A stretch of 64,000 nt of DNA from Escherichia phage Ecwhy_1: the sequence record MH791411.1, one strand, 5' to 3'. The translations under genes and the position numbers were made by a program. The notes beneath the pieces were generated by a model. The model made no database searches. It was given only the letters and a program-made list of their open reading frames with translations, and was not told where the DNA came from. Positions 9,685 through 60,466 of this stretch are shown here, piece by piece. Within the stretch, counting starts at the first letter, position 1. Each line of letters opens with the position of its first letter.

Positions 9685-11013
9685 TTAACCAAGAGAGCGT
9701 GCTTTACGTACTAGGTCAGAGTACTTCATAACGAAGTCTTTAAACGCTGGTACATCTTTAATCGTAATCGCTACTTTATGAAGCGTGATGGTACGAATCG
9801 CCAGTACTGCCAGTTCTGCTTGAGTTGCAGAGAAGTTATGGTCTAGGAAGGTGATGAAGTTGTTGCACAGCTTACCCCAATCTTCCACTGGTAGACGTTG
9901 TTCTTGCTTCTCATTGTAGAGGTCGATAATTTTGTAAACCAGATTCAGAGTGATGAAGTAGTTCGCGGAAATATCAAGCGAAGCATCAATCTCTTTAATC
10001 TCACCCTGTAGGATGGACATGGTATCTGGTAGTTTAGCTACGTTATCAACATACTCGATGTATTCAGTTGCTACGCCTTCACCAACACGACCTGCAATCA
10101 TCGCACGGAACACTTCTTTATCAATGTTCTTAACTTTCTTCAGATCTTCGTAGCGTGCTACTGCTTCCCATGAACGTGGAGAAGTACCACCACAGTGAGA
10201 AGGATCTTGTGGGCTAAGGGTGTTGAAGTGTTTAGCACCAGTGTTGTTGATGAACGCTACAGTTGCTGGGTTCAAACGCTTACCAATCGCATAATCGTTA
10301 ATCCAATCTTGATGATAAGGAATCATTTCGATGTGGGTCATACGGTCACGCAGTGGTGTAGCTAGAGAGAACGTTACACCGCCATCAGTTTCACGGTTAC
10401 CTGCTGCGAGAATCAGTGCAGTCTTAGGTAGCTTCATCTCACCAACACAACGGTCGAGGATTAGCTGATAAGACGCTGCCTGTACAATCGGCATTGCAGA
10501 GTTGATTTCGTCAAACAGAATAACACCTTTCCAATCTGGAGACAGTTTCAGTACTTTAGGTGCTGCCCACACAACTGCTGTTTCAGCGATGTAATCTTGT
10601 GCACTAGCCAGTTCAGATTCAATCAGTTGCTTACCATCCATATCAAGGAACACTTTCTCTGGAACTGGGATACCGCGAAGGTCACTTGGTTCAATCTGAG
10701 ACAAACGGAAATCGATAAAGTTAGTGTCTTGGTCGATTAGTTTGGCTTCAAACGCTGCCAGTTCACGGCGAAGTTGATCAGCATTTTCAGTATCAGCTTC
10801 GATTTGTTGTTTCATGAACTCAATTTTTGCCACGTTATCTTTACGCAGTGGGTAGTTCTCATCAGCGTATTGACGTGCGATAGCAGATTTACCGATACCA
10901 GGGCTACCCCAAATCATCAGGCTATCTTGAATCATGTCAGCCAGTGCCATTGCTTCTTTAGCTTTCTTAGGAGTCAGTTTTACGTTCAGGATATCGTTGT
11001 TTTGAGTAGACAT
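9685..11013 (-). CDS. MoxR/CobS-like AAA+ ATPase
   Basis: 442 aa; Walker A GSPGIGKS, Walker B ILFDEIN, and overall MoxR/CobS-like arrangement; AAGGAAA RBS. Confidence 0.8.
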   Translation of the reverse strand: MSTQNNDILNVKLTPKKAKEAMALADMIQDSLMIWGSPGIGKSAIARQYADENYPLRKDNVAKIEFMKQQIEADTENADQLRRELAAFEAKLIDQDTNFIDFRLSQIEPSDLRGIPVPEKVFLDMDGKQLIESELASAQDYIAETAVVWAAPKVLKLSPDWKGVILFDEINSAMPIVQAASYQLILDRCVGEMKLPKTALILAAGNRETDGGVTFSLATPLRDRMTHIEMIPYHQDWINDYAIGKRLNPATVAFINNTGAKHFNTLSPQDPSHCGGTSPRSWEAVARYEDLKKVKNIDKEVFRAMIAGRVGEGVATEYIEYVDNVAKLPDTMSILQGEIKEIDASLDISANYFITLNLVYKIIDLYNEKQEQRLPVEDWGKLCNNFITFLDHNFSATQAELAVLAIRTITLHKVAITIKDVPAFKDFVMKYSDLVRKARSLG

Positions 11014-11179: not shown

Positions 11180-11212
11180 TGGTCATTATATCACATCGTT
11201 CAGGCTTGTCAA
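11180..11212 (-). promoter_or_regulatory. sigma70-type promoter P1 (consensus -35/-10, extended -10, A-rich UP-like tract)
   Basis: Minus strand reads TTGACA (plus 11207-11212), 16-nt spacer, TGaTATAAT (plus 11185-11193); A-rich tract upstream of -35. Confidence 0.55.
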
Positions 11213-17877: not shown

Positions 17878-18654
17878 TTATAATCCAATGCTACCGAAAA
17901 CACGGTCAATGATATCTAATCCTTGGTTTACGTTTTCAGGTAAAAGTGAATTTATTCTAGTACTGTACATTTCTTCGATATTATCGAATTGGATACAATT
18001 ATCAGGTTTTATTGTAATAACCATTTCAACAGGAGAACTTGAACTATAGTCAAGTGAATCATATGATATATTTTGTATAACACATCCTGTTAGTACAAAG
18101 TACTCCATAACGCCAGCACTATTGTATGATGAACCACCAATGAACTGATCAACAGCGTTGACTAATCCAGTATTGTTGGTAGCGGCAGTTGTTGCATTAA
18201 CTAATGTGTTTCTTCCCAAGTCTTCTAGTGTATCATCAGAGTTGCGACCATTCAACATCTGAATGACAATTCCGAACTTATATGAACCATAATCATGGTC
18301 AGTTCTGGAAGTAATTCTTCGTTGAAAATCTAATTGTTTCTGTAATTGTCTTGACAAGGCTTTTGCTGATGCATTACCAACTGAATCACGGATAGTTAAA
18401 GTAATTGGGTCCCAATCGTGACTACCAATGTAAGATGTATTTGTTGTAAATTGATATAGTTTATGAGTACTGAAAGTAACAGTAGGTCTATCAACTTTAT
18501 CAACATCTAATGCAATGTGATCACGCTCATCTATATCAGTACCGAAATTATATACAATAACACGAAATTTGTATTTTGCTTTCGGTTGTAACATTGAACG
18601 GTTACGTCCTGATGGTAGAGGAACGCCATATTTATTAATCATGTTATTTGCCAT
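17878..18654 (-). CDS. tail tube protein, paralogue B
   Basis: 258 aa; shares YGVPL, QPKAKYKFRV and RDSVGNASAKAL with the adjacent tube gene; AAGAGG RBS. Confidence 0.7.
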   Translation of the reverse strand: MANNMINKYGVPLPSGRNRSMLQPKAKYKFRVIVYNFGTDIDERDHIALDVDKVDRPTVTFSTHKLYQFTTNTSYIGSHDWDPITLTIRDSVGNASAKALSRQLQKQLDFQRRITSRTDHDYGSYKFGIVIQMLNGRNSDDTLEDLGRNTLVNATTAATNNTGLVNAVDQFIGGSSYNSAGVMEYFVLTGCVIQNISYDSLDYSSSSPVEMVITIKPDNCIQFDNIEEMYSTRINSLLPENVNQGLDIIDRVFGSIGL

Positions 18655-18743: not shown

Positions 18744-19430
18744 TTAATTTTCGTAGAAGTTACTATCTGGTAGAGTAGTACTACTAATGTTGGTTTGTGC
18801 ACCACTAATAGAGGTAGCAGTGGATGGGTTACCGAAACCAGTAATTTCATCACCGAACGCTTCACCATTAGGACCGAGTTTTGCACAGCCGTCTGGTTGA
18901 ATTGTCATAGAAATAACTTGTGCTTCACTTGAGGAATAATCCCAGTCACCAAAGTTACTAGATTCGATAAAGCAGCCTTGACATACCCAAGTACTCAAAG
19001 TACCTTCAAAAAGGTTAGAAGTGTTTTCACTATTGGAGCCATCTAGCTCTTGAATCCACATTTCAAATTTGAACTGGGAATCAGTCATACGAGATTCTTG
19101 ACTGTAATAGTTAAATTCTTTACGCATTTGGTTATAAAGAGCTTTAGCAGAAGCATTACCAACTGAATCACGGAAAGCCACATCAATAGTATCCCAAGTA
19201 TACTTACCTTTATAGTGAGCAGAACTGTTATAACTATGCACAGTGACGTTTTCATGTGATACAGATACAGCACCAACGGTGTTGGTATCTAGGGTAATCA
19301 TATTGCCATCGTCGTTAGCACCGAAGCCAAAGAAAACAACACGGAATTTATATTTTGCTTTAGGTTGTTTCATAGAGATACGACCACCGCCAGCGAGCGG
19401 AACGCCATATCGATCAAGCATTGTAGCCAT
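18744..19430 (-). CDS. tail tube protein, paralogue A (probable major tube protein)
   Basis: 228 aa; AGGAG RBS; first gene after the sheath and followed by a strong terminator, as expected for an abundant structural protein. Confidence 0.75.
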   Translation of the reverse strand: MATMLDRYGVPLAGGGRISMKQPKAKYKFRVVFFGFGANDDGNMITLDTNTVGAVSVSHENVTVHSYNSSAHYKGKYTWDTIDVAFRDSVGNASAKALYNQMRKEFNYYSQESRMTDSQFKFEMWIQELDGSNSENTSNLFEGTLSTWVCQGCFIESSNFGDWDYSSSEAQVISMTIQPDGCAKLGPNGEAFGDEITGFGNPSTATSISGAQTNISSTTLPDSNFYEN

Positions 19431-28285: not shown

Positions 28286-28408
28286 TCATTCCCCCATCAA
28301 CCAATCACGTAGACGTTCCCAGAAGCCTTTTGGCTGATATTCTGGATATTCATATTCATCTGTTCCTTGCTCGGAAACACCCCAATCTTCTTCTAATACT
28401 GTAATCAC
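28286..28408 (-). CDS. conserved micro-ORF, copy A (about 40 aa, ends DWLMGE)
   Basis: GTG start with GGAGG RBS; stop TGA one nt before the CCA-enzyme ATG; paralogue of copy B at both nucleotide and protein level. Confidence 0.4.
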   Translation of the reverse strand: MITVLEEDWGVSEQGTDEYEYPEYQPKGFWERLRDWLMGE

Positions 28409-29236: not shown

Positions 29237-29418
29237 AAACAAATCTCATAGCGGTTTGTGTTTGGATTGTAGCAATAGGTATCATTAATTTTAACACCAG
29301 GTTTAAGTGTTATTGTTGTTCCTACTTCAGTACTGGGTTCTGCATCACAATAAATCATCACACCAACGCCACAGATTAAAGCTAAGATACAAATAATAGC
29401 ACATATTGTATATTCCAT
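29233..29418 (-). CDS. small membrane protein
   Basis: 61 aa from the ATG at 29418; N-terminal hydrophobic helix ICAIICILALICGVGVMIY; start overlaps the stop of micro-ORF B (TGATG). Confidence 0.45.
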   Translation of the reverse strand: MEYTICAIICILALICGVGVMIYCDAEPSTEVGTTITLKPGVKINDTYCYNPNTNRYEICL

Positions 29419-29543
29419 CACTCCCCCATCAGCCAATCAAAGAGACGTTCCAAGAAGCCATTAGGCTTGTATTCTGGTTCTTTGTTCACGTCGGTTTCTT
29501 GTTCATAAACACCCAAATCTTCTTCAAGTATAATTGTATTCAT
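29418..29543 (-). CDS. conserved micro-ORF, copy B (41 aa, ends DWLMGE)
   Basis: ATG start; protein MNTIILEEDLGVYEQETDVNKEPEYKPNGFLERLFDWLMGE parallels copy A; stop overlaps the next start. Confidence 0.45.
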   Translation of the reverse strand: MNTIILEEDLGVYEQETDVNKEPEYKPNGFLERLFDWLMGE

Positions 29544-35739: not shown

Positions 35740-36327
35740 TTATTCTTTTGTAATGTTTAGTTTAGAAACGAAATGGTTTTTTGCTTCTTCAAATGTCATT
35801 GAAGTATATACTGGGTTCCAATTATCGTCAAGATCTGTAAGTACTTTAACTTCCATTACATCTTCAGGTGTGTAGAATTGCCATGTGTTATGATCTGGTT
35901 CATAATTAGGGTCTAGTGTGAAAACTGTTCCATTCTGACCATAAACTTGTCCATCCTCTAATAGCTCACGAAATAAGTCTTCCCCAGTTGTTGGGTCTTC
36001 GTATGCATTATAAAAAGGAAAAACAACATTCTCAACATCAGTTCGGGTAGTACCATCGTCTTCATCATATTCAACCAAACGGTCCTGATGAAATACTAGG
36101 TCAATAGCACCAATGCGAGGTTTATTATGTGGAGTTTTGATTTCTTGCTGGGAATTGTAATCCATACGTTCAGTACTGATGAATACACCACTTGGTGTGA
36201 TTTCAATACCAGATACATTTTCTGGTGAATAATAAGAGTCACACATATCATCAATATGCATGTGCTCATGATACACTTCCATTTCAGGGTTCTGCATCAA
36301 CAGTGCTGCTAGGTCTTTTGCTTTCAA
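35740..36327 (-). CDS. hypothetical acidic protein
   Basis: 195-aa ORF. Confidence 0.45.
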   Translation of the reverse strand: MKAKDLAALLMQNPEMEVYHEHMHIDDMCDSYYSPENVSGIEITPSGVFISTERMDYNSQQEIKTPHNKPRIGAIDLVFHQDRLVEYDEDDGTTRTDVENVVFPFYNAYEDPTTGEDLFRELLEDGQVYGQNGTVFTLDPNYEPDHNTWQFYTPEDVMEVKVLTDLDDNWNPVYTSMTFEEAKNHFVSKLNITKE

Positions 36328-37066: not shown

Positions 37067-37684
37067 TTATTTTTCAAGTTTATCAATAATAGAAGGTGAT
37101 ACTTTTACATTGAATTCAGAATCAGGAAAATCTTTAGAAAATGAATCAATTTGTTCTTGTGAAAGTTCTTCTTTTTGTGGAAATAACATTTTAACTAAAT
37201 TTTTACCACATTCAATTGCTTCATCATACGACATAGTTTCCCATGTTCCATGCCAAGTACTAGGTTCATATTCTGTCAGTACAGAAATGAAATCAATATC
37301 ATCGGGTGTATACCAAACAGCATTTTGATTCCCTGATGGTGCTGATTGATTTTTACCTAATAAAACAATTGGCTTTTCATAAGGAATGTTAAATATCAAC
37401 CCAGATTCTAAGTTAAGAACAGTTTGAATAGATGAACCCTCCAATTTTGGAGTAATAGTACCATCCTTAAAGAAAATTTGTACATGACCCAAGAGTGGGG
37501 TTTCATATGGTGTAAGTACATTTTCAGAAACTGATGTGGGTTTTGCCGTTGTGAAAATACCAGATGGGGTGACCATTAATTTATTATCAAAATTCTGATA
37601 ATGCAATTCACTATCCACATCATAATGATAAATGTCTAGATTTGGTTGAGATAGTAGTAATTTTGCTAAATCATGAGATTTCAT
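37067..37684 (-). CDS. hypothetical protein
   Basis: Track ORF starts with GTG at 37714 inside the terminator hairpin; the ATG at 37684 (MKSHDLAKLL) has a GGAGAAA RBS. Confidence 0.5.
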   Translation of the reverse strand: MKSHDLAKLLLSQPNLDIYHYDVDSELHYQNFDNKLMVTPSGIFTTAKPTSVSENVLTPYETPLLGHVQIFFKDGTITPKLEGSSIQTVLNLESGLIFNIPYEKPIVLLGKNQSAPSGNQNAVWYTPDDIDFISVLTEYEPSTWHGTWETMSYDEAIECGKNLVKMLFPQKEELSQEQIDSFSKDFPDSEFNVKVSPSIIDKLEK

Positions 37685-37695
37685 TTTATTTCTCC

Positions 37696-37725
37696 AAAAG
37701 AAAAGGAGAGTCACAATGACTCTCC
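37696..37725 (-). terminator. rho-independent terminator
   Basis: Hairpin ggagagtca-caa-tgactctcc (37705-37725); on the minus strand followed by ttttctttt. Confidence 0.65.
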
Positions 37726-43550: not shown

Positions 43551-44060
43551 TTAACCACCGTACTTTGACTTATATGTTTCTAAAGATAAAGAAATGCGAT
43601 TTTGCTTTTTAATTCTTTCATCAATATCCTTTGAATTCTTAACACTTCTGTATACATCAGCTAATAAATTATAATCTTCTTTATTTGAGCTATGTAATGC
43701 CCAACCTATATCTGTTTTGATTCGAACATATGCTTTATTTGATGTGAAATAAAAATTGAATCCGTTAGACCCATCAAAAATATCATAAGTATTTACCCAA
43801 TCTCCATAAGGAAAACTCATTGGTACTGACTCATAATCAATGGTGATATCCGATAAATTTTTAGAACAGTACTTTACAAAGTGGTAAACAATCGGATCAC
43901 ATTTTGATAATTCGTATTTGTATTCAATGATAGTTTTTCTATTAGTATCATTGATGGCATATTCTTTTATCAATGGACTTTTTTTGATGATAAGAGTCCA
44001 TAGAAACGATTCTAATCCAGTTTCATCAACTTTTTCTTTCTTTTTGAAAAATGAAATCAT
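43551..44060 (-). CDS. hypothetical protein, tandem paralogue 3 of 3
   Basis: 169 aa; shares the N-terminal pattern T-x2-(D)R-x3-I/L-E-x-KY-x-LSK with the two upstream genes. Confidence 0.5.
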   Translation of the reverse strand: MISFFKKKEKVDETGLESFLWTLIIKKSPLIKEYAINDTNRKTIIEYKYELSKCDPIVYHFVKYCSKNLSDITIDYESVPMSFPYGDWVNTYDIFDGSNGFNFYFTSNKAYVRIKTDIGWALHSSNKEDYNLLADVYRSVKNSKDIDERIKKQNRISLSLETYKSKYGG

Positions 44061-44578
44061 TTATATAAACCCTTAATTTTCTGTCTATTATGTATATCAT
44101 TTTGCTGAATTTTCAAATTAGTAAGATTGTGTCTTACACCTTCAACGCCACGCATTATTTGTAACATAATTAGTGATTCGTCATATGTTAGAACATTGCT
44201 ATTATTATCGATATATACTTTCACTCCACTTTCAAGATAATCATTTTCTTTGGAGTTAAAGTTTCTAATAGCAAACTTAACGCCATTTGTTGCATCACTG
44301 AATACATATCGTTCCGCACCGTAGAATGTTTTTCCACGAAATAAACCGCCTTCTTCAAACTTCCAACGACTGGATTCATAATCATTAACGTAATCAATGA
44401 TTAATGGTAGCAAAGGGTGTTTGCTCAATTTATATTTTGCTTCTAACAGAACACGACGATCTTGATCTGTATTGATGATATCTTTAAGTGTGAAACTTTT
44501 TGATATAATTTTAAAGATAATTTCATGCCAAATTAAAGTACTGTTTTGTTTTCCAACTGGGCCAAAAAACATATTCAT
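44057..44578 (-). CDS. hypothetical protein, tandem paralogue 2 of 3
   Basis: 173 aa; TDQDRRVLLEAKYKLSK motif. Confidence 0.5.
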   Translation of the reverse strand: MNMFFGPVGKQNSTLIWHEIIFKIISKSFTLKDIINTDQDRRVLLEAKYKLSKHPLLPLIIDYVNDYESSRWKFEEGGLFRGKTFYGAERYVFSDATNGVKFAIRNFNSKENDYLESGVKVYIDNNSNVLTYDESLIMLQIMRGVEGVRHNLTNLKIQQNDIHNRQKIKGLYK

Positions 44579-44584
44579 TCCTCA

Positions 44585-45151
44585 TTAGTATAAATCAGTA
44601 ATGTCTTTGTATGCATTAATCTGTTTTTGTTGTAATGAAAGTTCATTGAGTTTAGTTACCATTTTATCTACACCAACACGTATATAGAAAATAATAAATG
44701 AATCTAACTTGCCTAGAGTAATTCTTGAACTGTAAGTTGAAAGTTTTCTTGCATAAACATAAATTTCTTCTTCACTTGGTAAACGTTTCTCAATCAGCAA
44801 GTTTTCCACACCATTCGGCTCATAATCAATCTCGAACTCTACGCCTATCACAGTATCTTGAATGATATCAGTATATGAACCACCGAAAAAAAACTCTCTT
44901 GGTTTGGTTCTCCAACGAGGACTAAATGGGTCAGATGCGTATTCTTTTACAAATTTGTAAAAGGACATTTTACTGAGCATATACTTCATCTCAATTAGTG
45001 CTTTGCGGTCATCATCAGTTTTAAACTCTGCTTTGAGCGATGGACTTTTACACAGTAACTTAACTAAATTGTTGTACATCTTTAATGTACGTTGGTCTTT
45101 CATTTCTTGGATTTTGTGACGCTTTGGTGGTGGTAGTAAAGATTTGACCAT
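44585..45151 (-). CDS. hypothetical protein, tandem paralogue 1 of 3
   Basis: 188 aa; TDDDRKALIEMKYMLSK motif. Confidence 0.5.
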   Translation of the reverse strand: MVKSLLPPPKRHKIQEMKDQRTLKMYNNLVKLLCKSPSLKAEFKTDDDRKALIEMKYMLSKMSFYKFVKEYASDPFSPRWRTKPREFFFGGSYTDIIQDTVIGVEFEIDYEPNGVENLLIEKRLPSEEEIYVYARKLSTYSSRITLGKLDSFIIFYIRVGVDKMVTKLNELSLQQKQINAYKDITDLY

Positions 45152-45221: not shown

Positions 45222-47951
45222 TTAATGCCAACGTGTACCAGAGCTTGAAGGAACACCAGTACTTGCGGGGATAGCAGAACCACGCTTGGTCGTACTAGGT
45301 CTGTATGTCAAGAATCGGGTTACCTTTTCAGTATCAATTGACGTAATACTCGTACTTCCAGTAACAATATCACCAACATATACGTTTGTCAATGTCTCAT
45401 CAAGAAGAGTTGTACTGATAACGTATGCCGCTTTTCTTGTGTTACGGTTCATTTGAATGTAAAGATAAAAAGTACTGTTAGCTGGGTTAGTTTTAATAGT
45501 ACTTAATTCTATGGTTTGAATCGCCAATCTATCAAACATACCACCAAGGAATACCGGAACTTCACGGGTGAAGTACACAGTGAAACCTTCAGCAACATCT
45601 TGTGAAACTACTACGATTTTATCTTGTACAGTTCCTGAACCATCAATCAACCCATCCATCTGTGCTGATGTTGTCCCAAAGAGACTAAACACTGCTTTAG
45701 TTTGATAATCTGAATCTTGAAGATGATAGTATCCAAATCCAACACCTGGTATAACTCCGTGCTGGAATGCATTGCCATTATCTATGTAGCTGGATGACAT
45801 AAATCGGTTAGATGTAATCAAACCATTCACTGTTTTAGCAATCATCAATTTGAATTGAGCATTACCAGGTTGTGAAAACTGATGAACTGCATCAACACCA
45901 ATATAACCAAAACCAGAATACTTAGCAACAGTTAGACCAGTACAGCGTTTCATATAGGCTTCGGTTACAATACCTGTTACAGAATTAAGTGTTTCGTATC
46001 TAGAACTCACCATAGACGCAGAACTAATATTGGTTCCTGAAACCGTGACATCAACTTCAGAATATATTGCATAACCTTGGTTATTTCCTAAGTTATATGC
46101 AGAAACCACCGCAATAGATTTTGAGAAAGAACTATCTGGTACATAATATAAAGCAATTTTACCAGAAAATGCTCCTACTATTCCAATATTAGCAAGTATT
46201 TCTTGTTTTAATGTTTCCAGAACATTATCACCAATTGTATAAGAACCATCAAATTCTAAAGTATCTGGGTTAAACAAACCACCACTTGTTTTGTATACAC
46301 CTTCAATGAATGATGTCCCATAACATTTAACTGAACCGTCAGTATCAATTAGTGAAATCATACCTGTATATTTGAAATCATCACCAAGACGAGTTCGGTT
46401 AGCTTGTGGTGCAAAACCATTAAGTGTTGTATTGTTTTGTACTGAATTGAACTGGAAGGTTGGATCAGTACCAATTTCAGAAAATACTGTATTGTTATAA
46501 CCATATGACTCATCTTCATATGTTCCAGAACATGCTAACAGTACTTTACGTTTATCAATAAAACGTGTTCCTAAAAGGTTTTCACCTACTGCACTACCAT
46601 ATGTTGGGGCAACGTTTACAAATTTAGAATTGTTCGCTTTGCGAGTACTGGCAACCCAACTATCATATGGTGTTCCTGTTACGTTATAAACCTGAATACC
46701 ATAGGTTTCAGAAGAACTCCAACGAGCACGTGTGCTGAATACTAAACCGTCATAGGTTTGGCATATAGAACCAACGTTACCTAATTGTGGAACACCTAAC
46801 TGTGTACCCATGAAGTTATTCATCTCAATGGCAAATGGGTTTGTTAGTGTGAATCCATCAACATCATTATATTCCGCTGCTATTGGTGCTCTACTACTTC
46901 CATCAATTGATAATGATTTAGAGTTGATAGTATAAACAAAACTAAAACCACTAGCATAAACAGTACTAATATATAGATTTGATACTAAACGGTTAGTTGG
47001 GAATAATGTAATTCTAATCTTTGATAAATCTGGACTTACGTTTGCTTGTATATTATAATCTGTATAATCTGAATATTCAACTCGTGTAACTGGTGAAGTG
47101 CATTCAAATAATGAATCACTACTAGTTCCAACTGAATATAATCTTTCATAAATTTTCAAATTATTAGCACTTGTGTAGTTAACACTTCTTAAGGTTTGAC
47201 CAGAAAAACCAGTAACCTTAGCAAAAGTACTCATAGTACCATCTTTAATACTACTTGTATTAACAGTATATAATGTTAAAGCCAAACCATAGTTTGCTAT
47301 AGTAGTGTCTTTGCACCACACAAATACTTTATCATTAACGATATGTGCATACAATGGTTTATCTGTACCAAATGATGTAGCAGCGATAGAAGCGTGAATA
47401 TGTGCAACTTCGTTAAATGTACCATTTGTTAAAGTGAAAATATAATTACTTGCACTAGATAGGCTAACTAGTAATTCATAACCATTCGTTCCGATGAACT
47501 GTTTAACATTTTCAGTACTTGGAAGAATTCTAGGATGATATTTTGATGTAGTACTGATAACACTACTTTGTGTTAGTGCATCAATATTACGCAAATCACG
47601 AATGAATGCATAGTAATATCCTTCAGTACTACCATTTGTACCAGCACGTAATACCACACCAGTACCATCATCTTCGACTATTGTTGGTTGCATACGGTAT
47701 ACATCTGAAAGCGACGTTGCCCCTTCGTATGAACCATTAACGTTTAATGGTAGATAATCCATTTCCCCTATACGGGAGATTGGTAACATATCAAGTATTT
47801 TTTGAACTTCTGATCTTTTATAAATTGGATAGTCAACAATACCTGTATTTGCGTCTGGTGCTGTACCATTAAAAGTACGCATAGCGTACTTTCCACCAAT
47901 TGCCAAATTTCCAAGTATAGCAGCACTACCAATGATGCGTTTGGATGACAT
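45222..47951 (-). CDS. tail fibre / receptor-binding protein, paralogue 1
   Basis: 909 aa; conserved N-terminal (LPISRIGEMDYLP) and C-terminal (TYRPSTTKRGSAIPASTG ... GTRWH) modules shared with 47968..48555 and 48568..51264; Asn/Ser/Thr/Gly-rich centre. Confidence 0.7.
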   Translation of the reverse strand: MSSKRIIGSAAILGNLAIGGKYAMRTFNGTAPDANTGIVDYPIYKRSEVQKILDMLPISRIGEMDYLPLNVNGSYEGATSLSDVYRMQPTIVEDDGTGVVLRAGTNGSTEGYYYAFIRDLRNIDALTQSSVISTTSKYHPRILPSTENVKQFIGTNGYELLVSLSSASNYIFTLTNGTFNEVAHIHASIAATSFGTDKPLYAHIVNDKVFVWCKDTTIANYGLALTLYTVNTSSIKDGTMSTFAKVTGFSGQTLRSVNYTSANNLKIYERLYSVGTSSDSLFECTSPVTRVEYSDYTDYNIQANVSPDLSKIRITLFPTNRLVSNLYISTVYASGFSFVYTINSKSLSIDGSSRAPIAAEYNDVDGFTLTNPFAIEMNNFMGTQLGVPQLGNVGSICQTYDGLVFSTRARWSSSETYGIQVYNVTGTPYDSWVASTRKANNSKFVNVAPTYGSAVGENLLGTRFIDKRKVLLACSGTYEDESYGYNNTVFSEIGTDPTFQFNSVQNNTTLNGFAPQANRTRLGDDFKYTGMISLIDTDGSVKCYGTSFIEGVYKTSGGLFNPDTLEFDGSYTIGDNVLETLKQEILANIGIVGAFSGKIALYYVPDSSFSKSIAVVSAYNLGNNQGYAIYSEVDVTVSGTNISSASMVSSRYETLNSVTGIVTEAYMKRCTGLTVAKYSGFGYIGVDAVHQFSQPGNAQFKLMIAKTVNGLITSNRFMSSSYIDNGNAFQHGVIPGVGFGYYHLQDSDYQTKAVFSLFGTTSAQMDGLIDGSGTVQDKIVVVSQDVAEGFTVYFTREVPVFLGGMFDRLAIQTIELSTIKTNPANSTFYLYIQMNRNTRKAAYVISTTLLDETLTNVYVGDIVTGSTSITSIDTEKVTRFLTYRPSTTKRGSAIPASTGVPSSSGTRWH

Positions 47952-47967: not shown

Positions 47968-48555
47968 TTACCAGCCTAATGTACCAGTTTGTGTTGGATT
48001 TCCAGTACTGACTGGGAAAGATGAACCTTTTTGTGTTGTACTTGGTCTGTATGTATTGAATCGTGATACGCGTTCAATGTTGATAGCAGTAATACCAGAA
48101 GTTCCAACGGTAATAGTCCCGATGAACATTATAATCTGTGATTCTTGTAATTGTGAAGTTGAGATTCTATAAATTGGCTCTCCCAGTACTAAAGTAGCGT
48201 ATACATATTGTGTTTGTGTGCCTGATGCCACTGTTGGTGCTGTCACTGCAACAACAGGGTAATTATAAAGATAGCCACCGATGAATGCAGGTATCTCTCG
48301 GTTAAAACGTAATGAATAACCGCTTGATGTAATTGACAAACTAGATACATCATAAAGTTCACCATATTGTGATAATGGTAAACCGTTAACAATAGAATCA
48401 ACTTCATCTTTTGTTAAGAGGGGGAATGTACATTCCCCATTTGCGTCTGTTCGATACGATACGTCATTAATATCACTAATAGATAGTCCAGTGTTTTTAT
48501 TCTGGACTACGATTTGTGACATAGCTTCGATATCGGATCTTATAATATATGCCAT
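47968..48555 (-). CDS. short fibre-family protein (N- and C-terminal modules only)
   Basis: 195 aa; LPLSQYGELY at the N-terminus and FNTYRPSTTQKGSSFPVSTGNPTQTGTLGW at the C-terminus match the two long fibre genes; no central domain. Confidence 0.6.
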   Translation of the reverse strand: MAYIIRSDIEAMSQIVVQNKNTGLSISDINDVSYRTDANGECTFPLLTKDEVDSIVNGLPLSQYGELYDVSSLSITSSGYSLRFNREIPAFIGGYLYNYPVVAVTAPTVASGTQTQYVYATLVLGEPIYRISTSQLQESQIIMFIGTITVGTSGITAINIERVSRFNTYRPSTTQKGSSFPVSTGNPTQTGTLGW

Positions 48556-48567
48556 AAGATTAATCCT

Positions 48568-51264
48568 TTACCAATTGATTGTTCCTGTTTGTGACGGTAG
48601 ACCATAACTAACTGGGAATGAAGAACCAGCAGCTTCAAGAGACGCACCGAAAATATCCAATCTTGAACGTTTTTGTATGTTAACATTTGATATTTGTAGT
48701 GAGTTTGTTTGTATAGTACCTATCCAGAAAATATTATATGCTGTAGAACCAGTTTCTGAAATAACATCAGTTGTTATTACATATTTTGCATTACCTTGTT
48801 CCATTTTAACATATACATGAAATAATGTGTTTGCTGGATTAGCCTTAACTGTAGTTAAGTTTATACTAGTAATCGGTAATGTAAATGCTTTACCAGAAAG
48901 AATTACTGGAGTTTCTTCTGTGAAGTACACAATAAAACCTTGAGCAACGTCTTGTGAAACTACGTTAATCGGTGCACCTTGAGCAGTCCAGTTATTATAA
49001 TCAGCAATTGTAGTACCACATTTTTGGAAAGTCATTTTGTTTACATAGTCTATTGCTTGGAAATAACCAAAACCAATACCAGGTAAAGCTGCTGGTTGAA
49101 TACCTTGCTCATAACTTGCATGTGAACCACTGATAATAAAACTATCAAATTGTGCAGTTGCTTTTGTTACATATGCTCTGAATTGGTGTGTGTTTGTATT
49201 ACCAATAGTTGGGTGAGATAATGGGTCAGAACCACCTATGAAGTAGAAAGAACCACCATCATATATTGTTAAACCAACAGAAGACGAAGCAAAACTACCA
49301 TTACCATTTGGTGTAAAGTTACTTCCGTAAACGTTTTCTAGTACTAAACGCTTGAAGGTAATTGTAGTGATATTACCTGAACGTGTATTCACATTCACTT
49401 CAGCAATTCTAATATAGTTCTGATATGTATTTGTAACTGTACTTAGCATTACGAATGCAGGTATATCAGTTTGTTGTGGAACAAACAATGTCATATCTTT
49501 ATAAGCAGCGGAAGATAAGTTCCAGTCGCTTAGTACTTTGGCGTATTCAGCATTTCTGAAATTATCAAGTACAGATTGAGTAACACTAATGATACCAGTT
49601 CCGTTCATATTTTTATCATATGATAGTGATTGGGAATATCTCTGACCTACCATGAATATCCCACCATTTGTAGTAACATTATTACCACTAATGGAACTAA
49701 TAAAAACTCTGTTGTTCGTGTTATCTGTCACATTAGCACGTTCTGTTGTTGGCTCATAACCTTGTATGGTTCCACGTGATAAAGAATTAAACGTAAAGTT
49801 AGGAGTACTTTTATGAACTGCATAAGATGGACGGAATGCACCAGAACCAGTTGAACGAGAATACTGTTTAGTACTGTTCCCTGGAAGCAATTCTACGCCG
49901 TTAATAAAAGAACCAACTGCTGAACCAAATGAAGGACGAACTATGCCATTTCTGAAATCAGTTGAAATGTTCGCACGTACATTAATCATGCTATATATTG
50001 ATTGTGCAGTAAATTTAGCTTTCTGCATAAGCAATGGTTCTGCTAAGTTTGGACATGCAGTACAGAATACTTCACCTGTATTCAGATAATAATATGAACT
50101 GTAAATGTTTCTTGCACCGCTATGGTCATATAAAGGATCTTTGTTGAGAACGTTACCAGTAGCAACCAATGCCGAACCTGTGTTTGTAACAACAAATGGT
50201 GCAGCAAATGTACCAATATCGTTCCCATTATCCAAGTTACATTGTTTAGTACTCATGTTAAAATTGAAACTATAACTATGCTGTGGTCGGGTATTGTAGT
50301 TTGCCATAGTGAACCATGCGTCACCATTCATTCTGAATCGGAAGTTCTGCGTTCCTGGCTCCTGAGCAACATATAAATCGATAGATGTCATATAAATCCC
50401 CATACCAGCCAAATTTTGTGGTACATAGACATATGGCTTATCAGCAATATTAGTTGAGTTAACATGGTCAGTAATGATTATATTATTCTGAGCAGTATAT
50501 GTAGTATTGTAAAAAGTTTTTGTTGTCCATCCCGTGATTCGGGTAGCAGTATAAGTACCGTTTGCAATATTCAATACAACACGAACAACAACAATCTGTA
50601 GTTTGTTATTTTCATTAAGGACGTTGAATACATAAACTGAACCGTCTTCTGCCATCATAGCATACTCAATCCCACCTTCAGGTGAAATATCAGCTTGGTT
50701 CACAAAAAGACCACTATGTTGTGTATCATCCAATGTACCATTCGTTACTGATATAAACAACCCATTAGTATTGGTAGATGTGTCATTGTAACGACCTAAT
50801 AGTATTTTTGAATCAGTATTGTATAAACCAATAGCAACACGGTTTGCCCCAAAATAGCCAGGCTTATACTGACGGCTTGTATTAACAGTACGGCTCATAT
50901 CGGTAACGGATAATGCGTTCGCTAGGTAAGAATAAAATAAACCTTCAACACTACCGTTTGTACCACTACGTAATAGTACTAATGTGCCATCGTTTTCTAA
51001 AAGTATTTTGTTTCTACGTTGGGATTGGTTTTCTGATGCACCATTAAAATCACCAGATACCCCAGCAGGTAGATAGTTATGTGTACCATAATGCGAGATT
51101 GGAAGTAAACTAATTACATCAAGTAATTCTTCTTTGGAATATGTATCAATTTCCATATTACCATTAGCATCAAATACTTGATCATTGATGCCCTGTACTG
51201 TTCTTTTCCCTTTAACTGTCACATTATGAGTGACGTCTAAGCCACCATATATTTTCTTTGACAT
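48568..51264 (-). CDS. tail fibre / receptor-binding protein, paralogue 2
   Basis: 898 aa; N-terminal LLPISHYGTHNYLP, C-terminal module ending GTINW; AAGGA RBS. Confidence 0.7.
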   Translation of the reverse strand: MSKKIYGGLDVTHNVTVKGKRTVQGINDQVFDANGNMEIDTYSKEELLDVISLLPISHYGTHNYLPAGVSGDFNGASENQSQRRNKILLENDGTLVLLRSGTNGSVEGLFYSYLANALSVTDMSRTVNTSRQYKPGYFGANRVAIGLYNTDSKILLGRYNDTSTNTNGLFISVTNGTLDDTQHSGLFVNQADISPEGGIEYAMMAEDGSVYVFNVLNENNKLQIVVVRVVLNIANGTYTATRITGWTTKTFYNTTYTAQNNIIITDHVNSTNIADKPYVYVPQNLAGMGIYMTSIDLYVAQEPGTQNFRFRMNGDAWFTMANYNTRPQHSYSFNFNMSTKQCNLDNGNDIGTFAAPFVVTNTGSALVATGNVLNKDPLYDHSGARNIYSSYYYLNTGEVFCTACPNLAEPLLMQKAKFTAQSIYSMINVRANISTDFRNGIVRPSFGSAVGSFINGVELLPGNSTKQYSRSTGSGAFRPSYAVHKSTPNFTFNSLSRGTIQGYEPTTERANVTDNTNNRVFISSISGNNVTTNGGIFMVGQRYSQSLSYDKNMNGTGIISVTQSVLDNFRNAEYAKVLSDWNLSSAAYKDMTLFVPQQTDIPAFVMLSTVTNTYQNYIRIAEVNVNTRSGNITTITFKRLVLENVYGSNFTPNGNGSFASSSVGLTIYDGGSFYFIGGSDPLSHPTIGNTNTHQFRAYVTKATAQFDSFIISGSHASYEQGIQPAALPGIGFGYFQAIDYVNKMTFQKCGTTIADYNNWTAQGAPINVVSQDVAQGFIVYFTEETPVILSGKAFTLPITSINLTTVKANPANTLFHVYVKMEQGNAKYVITTDVISETGSTAYNIFWIGTIQTNSLQISNVNIQKRSRLDIFGASLEAAGSSFPVSYGLPSQTGTINW

Positions 51265-57146: not shown

Positions 57147-57391
57147 TGTGCATCCTTTGGAATAGTGTTAAGGCGTGTACGGTTTACAATCTTCCTGCAC
57201 ATGAGATTAAGATCTTGCCCATGACGCATCTCATGGCAAGCATACAATGTACCATCATAGTTAAGTTTAGTCAAATTCTGGCGAATGAACTCTGCATCAG
57301 CCTCCTGAACTTTAGGTGCACAGCCACAGAGAGTAATGGACACAAATATTGTTAATGTAATGAATATATTTTTCATGATATTTTTTCTCAT
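57143..57391 (-). CDS. putative small lipoprotein
   Basis: 82 aa; N-terminal hydrophobic signal ending ITLCGC (lipobox-like). Confidence 0.4.
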   Translation of the reverse strand: MRKNIMKNIFITLTIFVSITLCGCAPKVQEADAEFIRQNLTKLNYDGTLYACHEMRHGQDLNLMCRKIVNRTRLNTIPKDAQ

Positions 57392-58359
57392 TTTGGGCTA
57401 TAACCACTTTTAATTTTAGAAATTACTTTCTTCTCGAAGAACTTACGTGCTTCTTCAATAGTTTTGAATTCTTCACCATCTGTAGTACTGGTTTTACCAA
57501 TAGCACCATACTCAATAATTACTTCACACACTGGAGCATTCAATTCAATATTATAGAATTTGTTCGAAGAACCGTGAACATATTCCAAATGTACATTATC
57601 AGGAATGTTCTGCACATAATCATAGTTCTTGAAGATAATATCAATCATATTTTCTTCACCGCGATCAGGAAATAGTTCAGTATTATTCAGTACTAAACGC
57701 TGTGCAGCACGGAACATATCAAAATATTGTTCACCTTTTTTCAGTTCTTTTGTATCAGAACAGAAATGACCATAGTATTCTACATAATCATTCCAAGGAT
57801 AAATTCCTTCATCAGCAGTTTCAAAAGCGTAAGTTTCATCTTGTGGAACTTTAAAACCACGAGTTTTTGGATGAGAAATTAAGCACAGTGAAATATTATG
57901 ACCGATATCTGAATCATCAGTAATACTACCACCAACCATATGAACAACATTTTTAATACGTTCAAAATCTACATCTTCAATTTCATGATACATTAAATGT
58001 TCTTCAATATTACTTACTAGTAATGAATTACCATTTCCTGCATCGAATTCAAAAATGAAAAGTTCTACACAATCTTCTTCTTTCATTTCAATAGTATCAC
58101 TGAGTTTAATATACTCATTTTTTACTTGTTCAATATTTTCATGAGAACCAAAACTATAACGAGAACTGATATAACTACTACCATCCAACCATCCCATATC
58201 CCAAGGTTCTTCTGACATGTATTCGGTGCTATAGAAATCAGTCAAATCATCTCTCTGAGTACAAACCGTAAGAGAACGAACATTATTAAGACCTTGAACT
58301 TCAAGATTCAGTACTGTAGTGTTGCCGATTTTTTGTTCAGAAATAATTTTAGTTTTCAT
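57388..58359 (-). CDS. hypothetical protein with C-terminal WGR-like domain
   Basis: 323 aa; C-terminal ~80 aa (SSNKFYNIELNAPVCEVIIEYGAIGKTSTTDGEEFKTIEEARKFFEKKVISKIKSGY) follows the WGR pattern, with YGAIG in place of WGRIG. Confidence 0.45.
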   Translation of the reverse strand: MKTKIISEQKIGNTTVLNLEVQGLNNVRSLTVCTQRDDLTDFYSTEYMSEEPWDMGWLDGSSYISSRYSFGSHENIEQVKNEYIKLSDTIEMKEEDCVELFIFEFDAGNGNSLLVSNIEEHLMYHEIEDVDFERIKNVVHMVGGSITDDSDIGHNISLCLISHPKTRGFKVPQDETYAFETADEGIYPWNDYVEYYGHFCSDTKELKKGEQYFDMFRAAQRLVLNNTELFPDRGEENMIDIIFKNYDYVQNIPDNVHLEYVHGSSNKFYNIELNAPVCEVIIEYGAIGKTSTTDGEEFKTIEEARKFFEKKVISKIKSGYSPK

Positions 58360-58368
58360 TTAAAATAC

Positions 58369-58473
58369 CTATTGAAATGATTTACGCCATTTGACTAGTT
58401 TAACATTCATGTAAGTAAGGAACTCACGTTCCATCTCTTCTGGACTCATATTATCGCATTGCAAAGCGAACAT
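58369..58473 (-). pseudogene. truncated duplicate of the 3' end of gene 58491..59138
   Basis: Nucleotides 58381-58480 are recognisably similar to 58505-58600; the 34-codon ORF (MFALQCDNMSPEEMEREFLTYMNVKLVKWRKSFQ) parallels the C-terminus of the upstream gene (...NSDEVEREFITRVQIALHKSKK). Confidence 0.4.
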
Positions 58474-58490
58474 GTCAAGTGCACATCATC

Positions 58491-59138
58491 CTACTTTTTT
58501 GATTTATGTAATGCAATTTGTACTCGCGTAATGAACTCACGCTCTACTTCATCTGAATTAACACCATCATATTGTGTTTTGAATAGTTCCATAGCTTTGA
58601 TAGCCATCTGAACTGAAAGATCAGCAATACTTTCAGTACTGGTACTTTCAAATACATTTTTGAGGCTTAGTTCACCATCATCAATACATTCTTTTGGTTT
58701 GTTGATTTCTGGTACTTGGATGTATCGCAATGCTTTGTATTCTGCTTTGGTCAGATTCCCAGTCCATCTTGGTTCATTGAACAAGTCATGCATTGTAATG
58801 CCAGCTTCACCCATTAGGTGTACTAACTCTTCATTTCGGCGAATATGCTTTTCTTCATCTTTGAAATTTTTGTAAGTGTAAGCACAACGCATGATAGCCA
58901 AACGTACTTCACCACTTTTAGTAATTGTATACGTATGAATTGCATTATCGTAGTCACTTTCCCATTGTTGACCCGCATATTCGTACCAAAGGTCATTTGT
59001 CTCCCAACGGAGCATTTTACCTTCTAGTAGCTCGTCAATCATTTTAGCCATGTTACCATGATATTCACAACTGGTAATATTAAATCCACCATTGTACTTT
59101 GCAAGGTACAGAATCTTTTCTTGTGATACATTTTTCAT
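58491..59138 (-). CDS. hypothetical protein
   Basis: 215-aa ORF with ATG start. Confidence 0.5.
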   Translation of the reverse strand: MKNVSQEKILYLAKYNGGFNITSCEYHGNMAKMIDELLEGKMLRWETNDLWYEYAGQQWESDYDNAIHTYTITKSGEVRLAIMRCAYTYKNFKDEEKHIRRNEELVHLMGEAGITMHDLFNEPRWTGNLTKAEYKALRYIQVPEINKPKECIDDGELSLKNVFESTSTESIADLSVQMAIKAMELFKTQYDGVNSDEVEREFITRVQIALHKSKK

Positions 59139-59476
59139 TACATGTAATCCTTGATGTATTTTAGCAGTTTAGATTTCTCTTCGGTACTTAATGATTTCTT
59201 GTTCATCAAGTGTTTCATTTCTTGACGTTCAATTTCTTCACATCTTTTAGATTCAGCTTCAATTCGTGTATGGTATTCTTCGTCAGTTTCTTCTCTGGTC
59301 CAAATTACATTGTATCCATCGAAACCACCGTAACCACCGTCTGGTGAAAGACTAATGTATCCCTTGTACTCTGAACGGTACTTATTAAGAGTGTCAATAA
59401 AGGTATCAATGCCACACTGTTCAATTTCAATATAACCAATCACGACAGCAACTTCAATTTTGTTCATAAAGTTCAC
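59138..59476 (-). CDS. hypothetical protein
   Basis: 112-aa ORF. Confidence 0.45.
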   Translation of the reverse strand: MNFMNKIEVAVVIGYIEIEQCGIDTFIDTLNKYRSEYKGYISLSPDGGYGGFDGYNVIWTREETDEEYHTRIEAESKRCEEIERQEMKHLMNKKSLSTEEKSKLLKYIKDYM

Positions 59477-59494
59477 CTATAAAAATAGGGAGCA

Positions 59495-60052
59495 TTAGCT
59501 CCCTTTGTATTGATGTTTACGTTTAGTACTGTATTTCCAGCCAGTACTGTGTCTTGTTCTGATATCATCCCAATACGATGGTAGTGAACGCATCTTACGT
59601 CTTCCACGTATATCCGGTTCCCCCTCATCCTTCAGTACTGCACAAGCCATACGACGCTCTTGTTGGGTCTTAGGACGTTTGTATCTGGAGTGGTTATGTT
59701 TGTACATATACGAACGCTTGTGTCGCCATTCAGTGTCACGAGCATTTCGTTTATGATCCCAGTACTCATTATAGAGTATCATGTATTCACCCATAAGTAA
59801 ATCAGGAGATACAAGTAATCCTTTTTCAGTACAAAGATAATAACCTACGAACTTTTCTGGATACATTTCGTAATAGAAACGGTTCTTCCAAAATGTTTCA
59901 CGATTCTTTTTGTTGAATTCAGCTAAATCGAATTTCATCTTACTGTGGAAACGGTCTATACCGTCATGTTCCGCAATGTACTCTAACAGATTATCAATAA
60001 TCTCAACTTTACCTGAATCATGGTACAACGTAAATGTTTGGTCAAAAAACAT
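59495..60052 (-). CDS. hypothetical protein with basic C-terminal tail
   Basis: 185-aa ORF; Arg/Lys/His-rich C-terminal third. Confidence 0.45.
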   Translation of the reverse strand: MFFDQTFTLYHDSGKVEIIDNLLEYIAEHDGIDRFHSKMKFDLAEFNKKNRETFWKNRFYYEMYPEKFVGYYLCTEKGLLVSPDLLMGEYMILYNEYWDHKRNARDTEWRHKRSYMYKHNHSRYKRPKTQQERRMACAVLKDEGEPDIRGRRKMRSLPSYWDDIRTRHSTGWKYSTKRKHQYKGS

Positions 60053-60140
60053 ATATTTCTCCTTTAAGTTAAACTAACCTAATGGAATGTCATTCTTCCT
60101 TTACTACATGTTCTCATGGTTTAATCCTTTTGTCAATATC

Positions 60141-60173
60141 TAGAAAGAAAAAATCCCTGCCAAAAGACAGGGA
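60141..60173 (-). terminator. rho-independent terminator
   Basis: Hairpin atccctg-ccaaaaga-cagggat (60152-60173); on the minus strand followed by ttttttctttct. Confidence 0.6.
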
Positions 60174-60268
60174 TGAAAAACTGAAATAACACATGGAGTT
60201 CTTTTTAAATTAATAAAAAGTATTATTATTCTTATGAAAGTATTTATCATGAACTCCAGTTTATTGCT

Positions 60269-60466
60269 TCAAATGCCCCAATAACCTTTTTGTGCTACTA
60301 TCTCACGGTATTGAGCACGAGTTAGAACACCTTGTTTACGTAGAGCTTGAAGACCTGATAGGGTTTCTGCTTTACGTAGTTCGTAATTGCGTTGTTCTTT
60401 AGATTGAATAACTTTAACTTTCTTAACTTTTGCTACTGGTTCTTTTTTCTTAGGTTGCTTTGCCAT
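60269..60466 (-). CDS. small basic protein (possible nucleic-acid-binding)
   Basis: 65 aa; Lys-rich N-terminus; AAGGAG RBS. Confidence 0.5.
   Translation of the reverse strand: MAKQPKKKEPVAKVKKVKVIQSKEQRNYELRKAETLSGLQALRKQGVLTRAQYREIVAQKGYWGI

Follow-up and report, generated by a model that had tools for sequence, protein, structure and literature searches.

The region considered here belongs to a window of 64,000 nucleotides, the whole stretch of DNA that was analysed, whose sequence is 100% identical to that of the Escherichia jumbo phage fEgEco12, a member of Asteriusvirus (PP777464.1). All the genes in this part of the window are carried by the - strand. The resident gene, g226 (58491..59138, 215 aa), is followed after a spacer of 17 nt by a 34-aa ORF (58369..58473) that is annotated in fEgEco12 as the hypothetical protein g227 (XBS49309.1) and has the peptide sequence MFALQCDNMSPEEMEREFLTYMNVKLVKWRKSFQ. 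A further 9 nt separate this ORF from a gene of 323 aa (57388..58359, g228 in fEgEco12), referred to here as the WGR gene, whose product carries a WGR domain at the C-terminus (Pfam, E 1.3e-10). The last 34 codons of g226 (58494..58595, - strand) are echoed in a segment located at 58369..58485 (- strand), which contains the 34-aa ORF and will be interpreted below as the orphaned 3' end of another form of the gene, i.e., its last 37–38 codons approximately and a TAG stop (58369-58371). The bases GATGA (58486..58490, - strand), between the g226 stop codon and this segment, mark the scar of an 86-nt deletion with respect to genomes of the G17/BF17 type. Inside the segment, and facing the WGR gene, there is also a sigma-70-like promoter match (58450..58478, - strand). 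The paper describing fEgEco12 (PMC13070987) makes no mention of these genes or of promoters.

The first-pass annotation of this DNA had noticed that nucleotides 58381..58480 echo 58505..58600 and still encode a related 34-aa peptide. The homology is real, but the second interval was displaced by ca. 5–11 nt, the true correspondence being 58381..58482 with 58494..58595. The relationship of the peptide was also borne out, with 12 identities and 21 positives over 31 residues when compared to residues 185-215 of g226, at its C-terminus (pairwise comparison, E 6e-7). Searching the whole 64-kb window by tblastn, the 37-aa open frame that includes the ORF found the g226 site with 13/34 identical residues (E 7e-6), the next match having an E value of 2.6, and in an all-vs-all blastp of the 556 ORFs of the window the 34-aa ORF and g226 were paired at E 1e-4. 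At the level of DNA, the two share 50 of 93 nt (54%), with 14 of the 31 third codon positions identical, not above the first positions, and the best gapless direct repeat in 57300..59600 (58415-58461 vs. 58528-58574, offset 113) covers 47 nt with 70% identity. The E values obtained in the three protein-level comparisons indicate that the similarity is above chance, while the nucleotide identity and the third positions point to an old homology and not to a recent copy. A chance resemblance in AT-rich sequence, suggested by this unimpressive DNA identity and by the many chance pairs of like quality listed in the repeat search, can practically be discarded given the tblastn result and the fact that each segment separately matches the same family profile (phrog_15672) and the same columns of the type A protein described below; the similarity is therefore better than AT-rich sequence would give, which was the test set in the first-pass annotation.

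The nature of the segment became apparent in the comparison with other phages. In phage G17 there are 86 additional nt between the upstream gene and the WGR gene, and these lengthen the reading frame upstream. The frame lengthened in this way with the G17 sequence (64 aa) was used as tblastn query for relatives and matched about 130 phage records, each time at the C-terminus of a larger protein (188–286 aa), for example RaK2_00510 (286 aa), GAP32_127 (270 aa) and orf29 of the Aeromonas phage ZPAH1 (188 aa). The GenBank notes on the RaK2 and GAP32 proteins describe them as similar to KVP40.0035. We refer to the full-length form (279–286 aa) of this KVP40.0035/RaK2_00510 family as type A. Two Escherichia phages, UE-S1 and TH47, have an intact type A of 279 aa at the same locus, flanked by the g225 homologue and the WGR gene. 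The positions 58369..58482 of the window match the 3' end of this intact type A of both sister phages at 112 of 114 nt (98%), and the type A homology begins at position 76 of the query, i.e., at 58485 of the window. Furthermore, the 34-aa ORF covers only the positions 239-272 of the 273 of phrog_15672, the profile of the KVP40.0035/RaK2_00510/GAP32_127 family (E 1.7e-11), with no full-length match, while RaK2_00510 covers positions 13-272. The 112/114 nt match together with the match restricted to the end of the profile indicate that the segment is the tail of a type A gene and not a copy of the tail of its neighbor. Compared to the family, the remnant retains the last 34 of 273 profile positions and lacks every one of the conserved motif residues. 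The first-pass annotation was thus right in seeing here the remnant of the 3' end of a gene. Judging from its distribution, type A is the ancestral form, since its relatives are numerous and widespread and type B, the form represented by g226, is known as seven clusters that are E. coli-associated or unnamed. The comparison of related genomes that had been suggested to find which copy is ancestral can hence be answered, in terms of two forms of the gene: the remnant belongs to the ancestral, widely distributed form and the end of the resident gene is derived. In UE-S1, a single protein of 389 aa (UES1_434; L006 1526..2695) joins the g225 homologue to type A. Its translation shows an internal MKNVTQEK start, and the fusion probably reflects a frameshift at the overlap of g225 and type A, or else an error of annotation or sequencing there.

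The C-terminal domain of type A matches phrog_1247, described as 'MazG-like pyrophosphatase' (E 5e-16). The acidic metal-binding signature of the all-alpha NTP pyrophosphohydrolases is EXXE-X(12-28)-EXXD. In type A we find EELGE (EXXE, E208-E211), 23 residues and EAVD (EXXD, E235-D238), and the residues E207, E208, G210, E211, E235, and D238 are invariant in 41 type A homologues. EXXD is known to be a Mg-binding motif (PMC4491611). The AF2 model of type A (mean pLDDT 87) predicts four helices between residues 178 and 278, and the remnant would correspond to the last helix and a half (H231-249, H256-278). The top matches of this model in the PDB (Foldseek) were iMazG structures, 2q5z and 2q73, with a probability of 0.77–0.84 but an E value of ca. 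0.9, and the human DCTPP1 (7mu5) was also listed, again with an E value close to 1. Type A would resemble the MazG-like NTP pyrophosphohydrolases, such as iMazG of Vibrio integrons (2q5z) or DCTPP1, in the EXXE/EXXD motifs and in the predicted four-helix architecture, and differs from them in that sequence matches outside PHROGs are lacking: Pfam and NCBIfam scans of four type A proteins, the type B protein and the 34-aa ORF gave nothing meaningful, and a PDB sequence search with RaK2_00510 and with a profile of four C-terminal domain sequences returned noise only. We tentatively describe this domain as MazG-like, a label that is likely but not secure. The remnant begins after EAVD and carries no residue of the MazG motifs, which are also absent from type B, so neither of the two would be expected to have pyrophosphohydrolase activity.

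The resident gene shares with type A its first ~115 residues and diverges from there on. Comparing g226 with the UE-S1 type A protein, the identity was 39% with 61 gap positions (BLASTP), and the type B and type A families can be aligned end to end (hhalign, E 6e-50). In the latter alignment type B lacks the EELGE helix and has LSVQ where type A has EAVD. The protein g226 also matches phrog_15672 (E 6.5e-60), over positions 13-174 and again at the C-terminus; compared to the rest of the family, type B is devoid of about 60 residues of the C-terminal domain. Its last ~47 residues are a diverged counterpart of the last ~47 of type A, and the 34 codons echoed by the remnant align with type A residues 243-276. 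The seven type B clusters found, all of them from E. coli-associated or unnamed sources, are 69–94% identical to the g226 protein, and the alleles differ among themselves by 6–31% of their amino acids. With type B alleles so far apart, the split between A and B must be much older than the orphaning of the tail. The type B allele of the window is 99.9% identical to that of Turkey3, an indication that later homologous exchanges have also shuffled the upstream part of the locus. The last codons of g226 form a classic -1 slippery heptamer, A AAA AAG (58494..58500, - strand). A -1 frameshift at this heptamer (58500..58494) was considered as a way of joining g226 to the remnant, which does lie in the -1 frame, and was rejected because that frame meets a TGA (58488..58486) after two codons, and no extended g226 product is possible from the slippery site. 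Stop-codon readthrough joining both was rejected as well, as in-frame readthrough ends after 14 codons.

The echo had been read in the first-pass annotation as a recent local duplicate of the 3' end of g226. A tandem duplication, with one of the copies now reduced to a remnant, fits with two homologous segments that lie next to each other, agree in strand and order, and have a significant similarity. Nevertheless, we consider it very improbable. The two supposed copies are only 54% identical in nucleotides and 38% in amino acids, compared to the 98% that the remnant shares with a different allele, that of UE-S1 and TH47. Besides, the remnant of G17-type genomes includes, further upstream, type A sequence (KEAGKDGVKGEAVD) to which nothing in type B corresponds, and, as mentioned before, the divergence of A and B long predates the orphaning. 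What does hold of that reading is that the locus gives evidence of rearrangement, with a remnant left beside the allele that probably replaced the gene.

Paralogues are present in other parts of the window, and the statement made about them in the first-pass annotation was broadly true, several pairs having been detected in the all-vs-all blastp. The duplicated micro-ORFs that it placed near 28.3-29.5 kb were confirmed; they are located at 28286..28408 and 29418..29543 (both on the - strand), have ca. 40 aa and are 68% identical over 37 aa (E 8e-14). Three adjacent or nearby pairs, 44585..45151/44057..44578, 37067..37714/35740..36327 and 17878..18654/18744..19430, all on the - strand, have 24–32% amino acid identity (E 1e-8 to 2e-38). 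Two ORFs of ~900 aa, 48568..51264 and 45222..47951 (- strand), are paralogous (29% over 483 aa, E 1e-34), and a 195-aa ORF located between them (47968..48555, - strand) resembles the C-terminal ~170 residues of both, with 32% identity (E 8e-15 and 8e-21, respectively). It may represent a further C-terminal module that stands alone or was stranded. Also, on the other side of g226, a hairpin with a perfect 7-bp stem and a 4-nt loop (59487..59504), terminator-like on both strands, overlaps the 3' end of the ORF 59495..60052.

The megablast homology of the window with 121Q, Turkey3, WPEC3, CMSTMSU, and others stops exactly at 58490, next to the type B stop codon. What follows type B in 121Q-like genomes is an unrelated gene of 59 aa (gene 485 in 121Q), and the WGR gene is absent. 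At the junction the sequence of 121Q reads GTAGGTTCATATGAAAT (also given as GTAGGTTCATATGAAATTTT), in which gene 485 starts with ATGAAAT, and that of the UE-S1 type A reads ...GAAATGAACATCC (also ...CTTGAAATGAACATCCGT). The junction of G17-type genomes is GTAGGATGATATGAAAT|ATGAACATCC, in its longer form ...AAAAAGTAGGATGATATGAAAT|ATGAACATCCGT..., and the G17 sequence ...GTAGGATGAT, followed by 86 nt and by GTGCACTTGAC, aligns to GTAGGATGATGTGCACTTGAC in the window. The locus is most likely a recombinant of 121Q-like and UE-S1-like genomes, the parental genomes and the direction of exchange being those that we infer from extant sequences. A genome of the 121Q kind, with type B and gene 485 but no WGR gene, would have recombined with one of the UE-S1 kind, with type A and the WGR gene. 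The left crossover would have taken place within shared sequence, and the right joint would have been illegitimate, located just past the first 7 nt of gene 485 and ca. 200 nt before the type A stop. In this way a complete type B would have replaced most of type A, leaving a tail of ~200 nt stranded, which in the lineage of the window would have been trimmed to 117 nt by the later 86-nt deletion, the 34-aa ORF being what stays open from an internal Met codon. There are two extra bases (AT) at the G17-type joint, unlike what would be expected of a clean microhomology crossover, and this counts against the joint as proposed. Taking everything together, we think that 58369..58485 (- strand) is a decaying pseudogene fragment of type A that was stranded when type B replaced the gene by recombination, with a probability of roughly 0.88.

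In the Hendrix model of phage mosaicism illegitimate recombination is followed by selection, and gene remnants are found at the joints. The case described here has the same elements, i.e., homology that breaks off sharply at a gene boundary (58490), the truncated end of a gene beside a functionally equivalent replacement, sister genomes that carry alternative modules (gene 485 vs. the remnant and the WGR gene) and a fragment in progressive decay, and we see no essential difference. Where it departs from mosaic joints in general is in that the intact, nonsense, frameshifted, and truncated stages have all been kept in sequenced relatives. Between g226 and the lipoprotein gene the cassettes are variable: PBECO4, G17, BF17, and WPEC5 have an extra gene of 126 aa (L002/L003 1587..1967) just downstream of the position of the WGR gene, which is absent from fEgEco12 and in WPEC5 is present without the WGR gene.

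The sister genomes can be arranged by the degree of decay of the type A tail. UE-S1 and TH47 preserve the intact type A and the WGR gene. UB, BF17, ECO103 4-12-1, and EC22.5-2 have a remnant of ~200 nt with a nonsense change, CAA>TAA, although EC22.5-2 was placed here by a pattern of matches identical to that of ECO103 and not by sequence alignment. A remnant of the same size and with the same nonsense change has in addition a 13-nt deletion and ATG>ATA in BAU.Micro_ELP-22, and a 4-nt deletion in slurp01, G17, and Sharanji. In PBECO4, SP27, phAPEC6, EC.P1, and fEgEco12 (i.e., the window) the remnant is 117 nt long as a result of the 86-nt deletion at its 5' side. Finally, about 18 phages have type B and neither the remnant nor the WGR gene. 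The nonsense codon is common to eight phages, so that the frame is broken in 8 of the 13 that bear the remnant. The seven distinct point changes found in the remnant include six nonsynonymous, one nonsense and no synonymous replacements, and none of the three indels is a multiple of three. As a reference, over the same segment the intact alleles of UE-S1 and RaK2 differ by 22 synonymous and 11 nonsynonymous codons, with similar values for K64-1 and Munch; the difference between the counts for the remnant and those for the intact alleles has a p of ~0.002 (one-sided Fisher). One of the changes, CCA>TCA (58421 region), is present in every other remnant but missing from the window and EC.P1, even though these two have the 86-nt deletion in common with PBECO4, SP27, and phAPEC6. 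This counts against the proposed history in its simplest form, as it would require a later patch of recombination with a type A allele, or else homoplasy.

It could be argued that g227 is a genuine small gene, for example coding for a helical micro-protein whose partner would be the MazG-derived C-terminus of type B. GenBank annotates it, the frame is open in fEgEco12, EC.P1, PBECO4, SP27, and phAPEC6, and in the AF2 model the peptide spans one and a half helices at the end of a helical domain. However, in the other eight sister phages the frame is broken, and every point change is nonsynonymous or nonsense. There is no Shine-Dalgarno sequence in the 5–10 nt upstream of the ATG of the ORF, the nearest AGGA being 15 nt off, and the ORF begins at a Met codon internal to the parent gene. 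Furthermore, the 34-aa ORF annotated in G17, as those of slurp01, Sharanji, BF17, and BAU, corresponds to another piece of the wrecked gene, which overlaps this one and terminates at the TAA. The internal start, the lack of a usable Shine-Dalgarno and the loss of coding constraint argue against g227 being a gene, an alternative to which we give little credit. The 34-aa ORF, open as it is in the window, may be expressed, but probably not as a functional protein.

The decay of the coding capacity leaves room for a different role of the DNA. The - strand of the remnant contains, at 58478..58450, TTGACA and GATAAT separated by 17 nt and with a TG upstream, which matches 11 of the 12 bases of the sigma-70 -35 and -10 hexamers at a spacing within 16–18 nt and is the best such site in 57300..60300. 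Transcription would start near 58443, leaving a leader of ~84 nt to the WGR gene. One could think that the dead tail has been kept by exaptation, as a sigma-70 promoter, leader and ribosome-binding site of the WGR gene. Along the window there are 13 sites with at least 11/12 matches, all on the - (coding) strand, when 4.2 would be expected counting both strands, and 4 of the 13 have the TG, compared to 0.35 expected. Six of them are outside ORFs, and the seven that fall inside may be non-functional. The hexamers and their spacing are unchanged in the 13 aligned genomes (13/13), without any of the seven substitutions and three indels having affected them, and the 86-nt deletion, on the upstream side, stops 7 nt short of the -35 hexamer. 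Still, this sparing is not significant, since we estimate that 12 bases would be missed by ~10 events in ~200 nt about half of the time, and the promoter stays for this reason an inference. A similar motif, TTGACA-17-AATAAT, is found at the same place in the Asteriusvirus EJP2 and not at the matching position in RaK2, K64-1, or Munch. In silico predictions of RpoD-like early promoters have been published for the related phage CBB (PMC5259590); we found no transcript-start data in the literature on this phage group. The 15 phages with the WGR gene (15/15) carry either the intact type A or its remnant immediately upstream, but this linkage is equally well explained by shared descent, and a leader of ~84 nt also speaks against the idea.

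All in all, exaptation appears to us possible but rather doubtful. It is compatible with the explanation of the segment as a type A remnant, as only the coding capacity would decay, in several lineages independently, while selection would keep the hexamers, and the tail may persist either because the event was recent or because of the ribosome-binding region of the WGR gene and, possibly, the sigma-70 promoter. If true, it would be a small, datable case of coding sequence becoming regulatory sequence in a jumbo phage. A terminator-like hairpin at 58419..58432 was discarded as another possible function: it scores as such for the + strand alone, the coding strand shows no T-tract there, and the 4-nt deletion of G17 affects it. 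Elsewhere in the window two perfect (12/12) promoter matches, TTGACA-16-TATAAT with TG, are located at 11212 and 11304 (- strand), 92 nt apart, in an intergenic position upstream of the ORF 9685..11013.

The orphaned tail of type A is an ordinary product of phage mosaicism that the sister genomes document unusually well, and does not represent a new kind of system. It does call for a correction of the annotation, as XBS49309.1 (g227) and the corresponding entries for G17, slurp01, Sharanji, BF17, and BAU are not small proteins and all derive from a single wrecked gene. It also reveals that two alleles of one gene circulate in Asteriusvirus, one with and one without the MazG-like core, and provides a rare stepwise record of how the end of a replaced gene erodes, from intact to nonsense and frameshift and from there to truncation.
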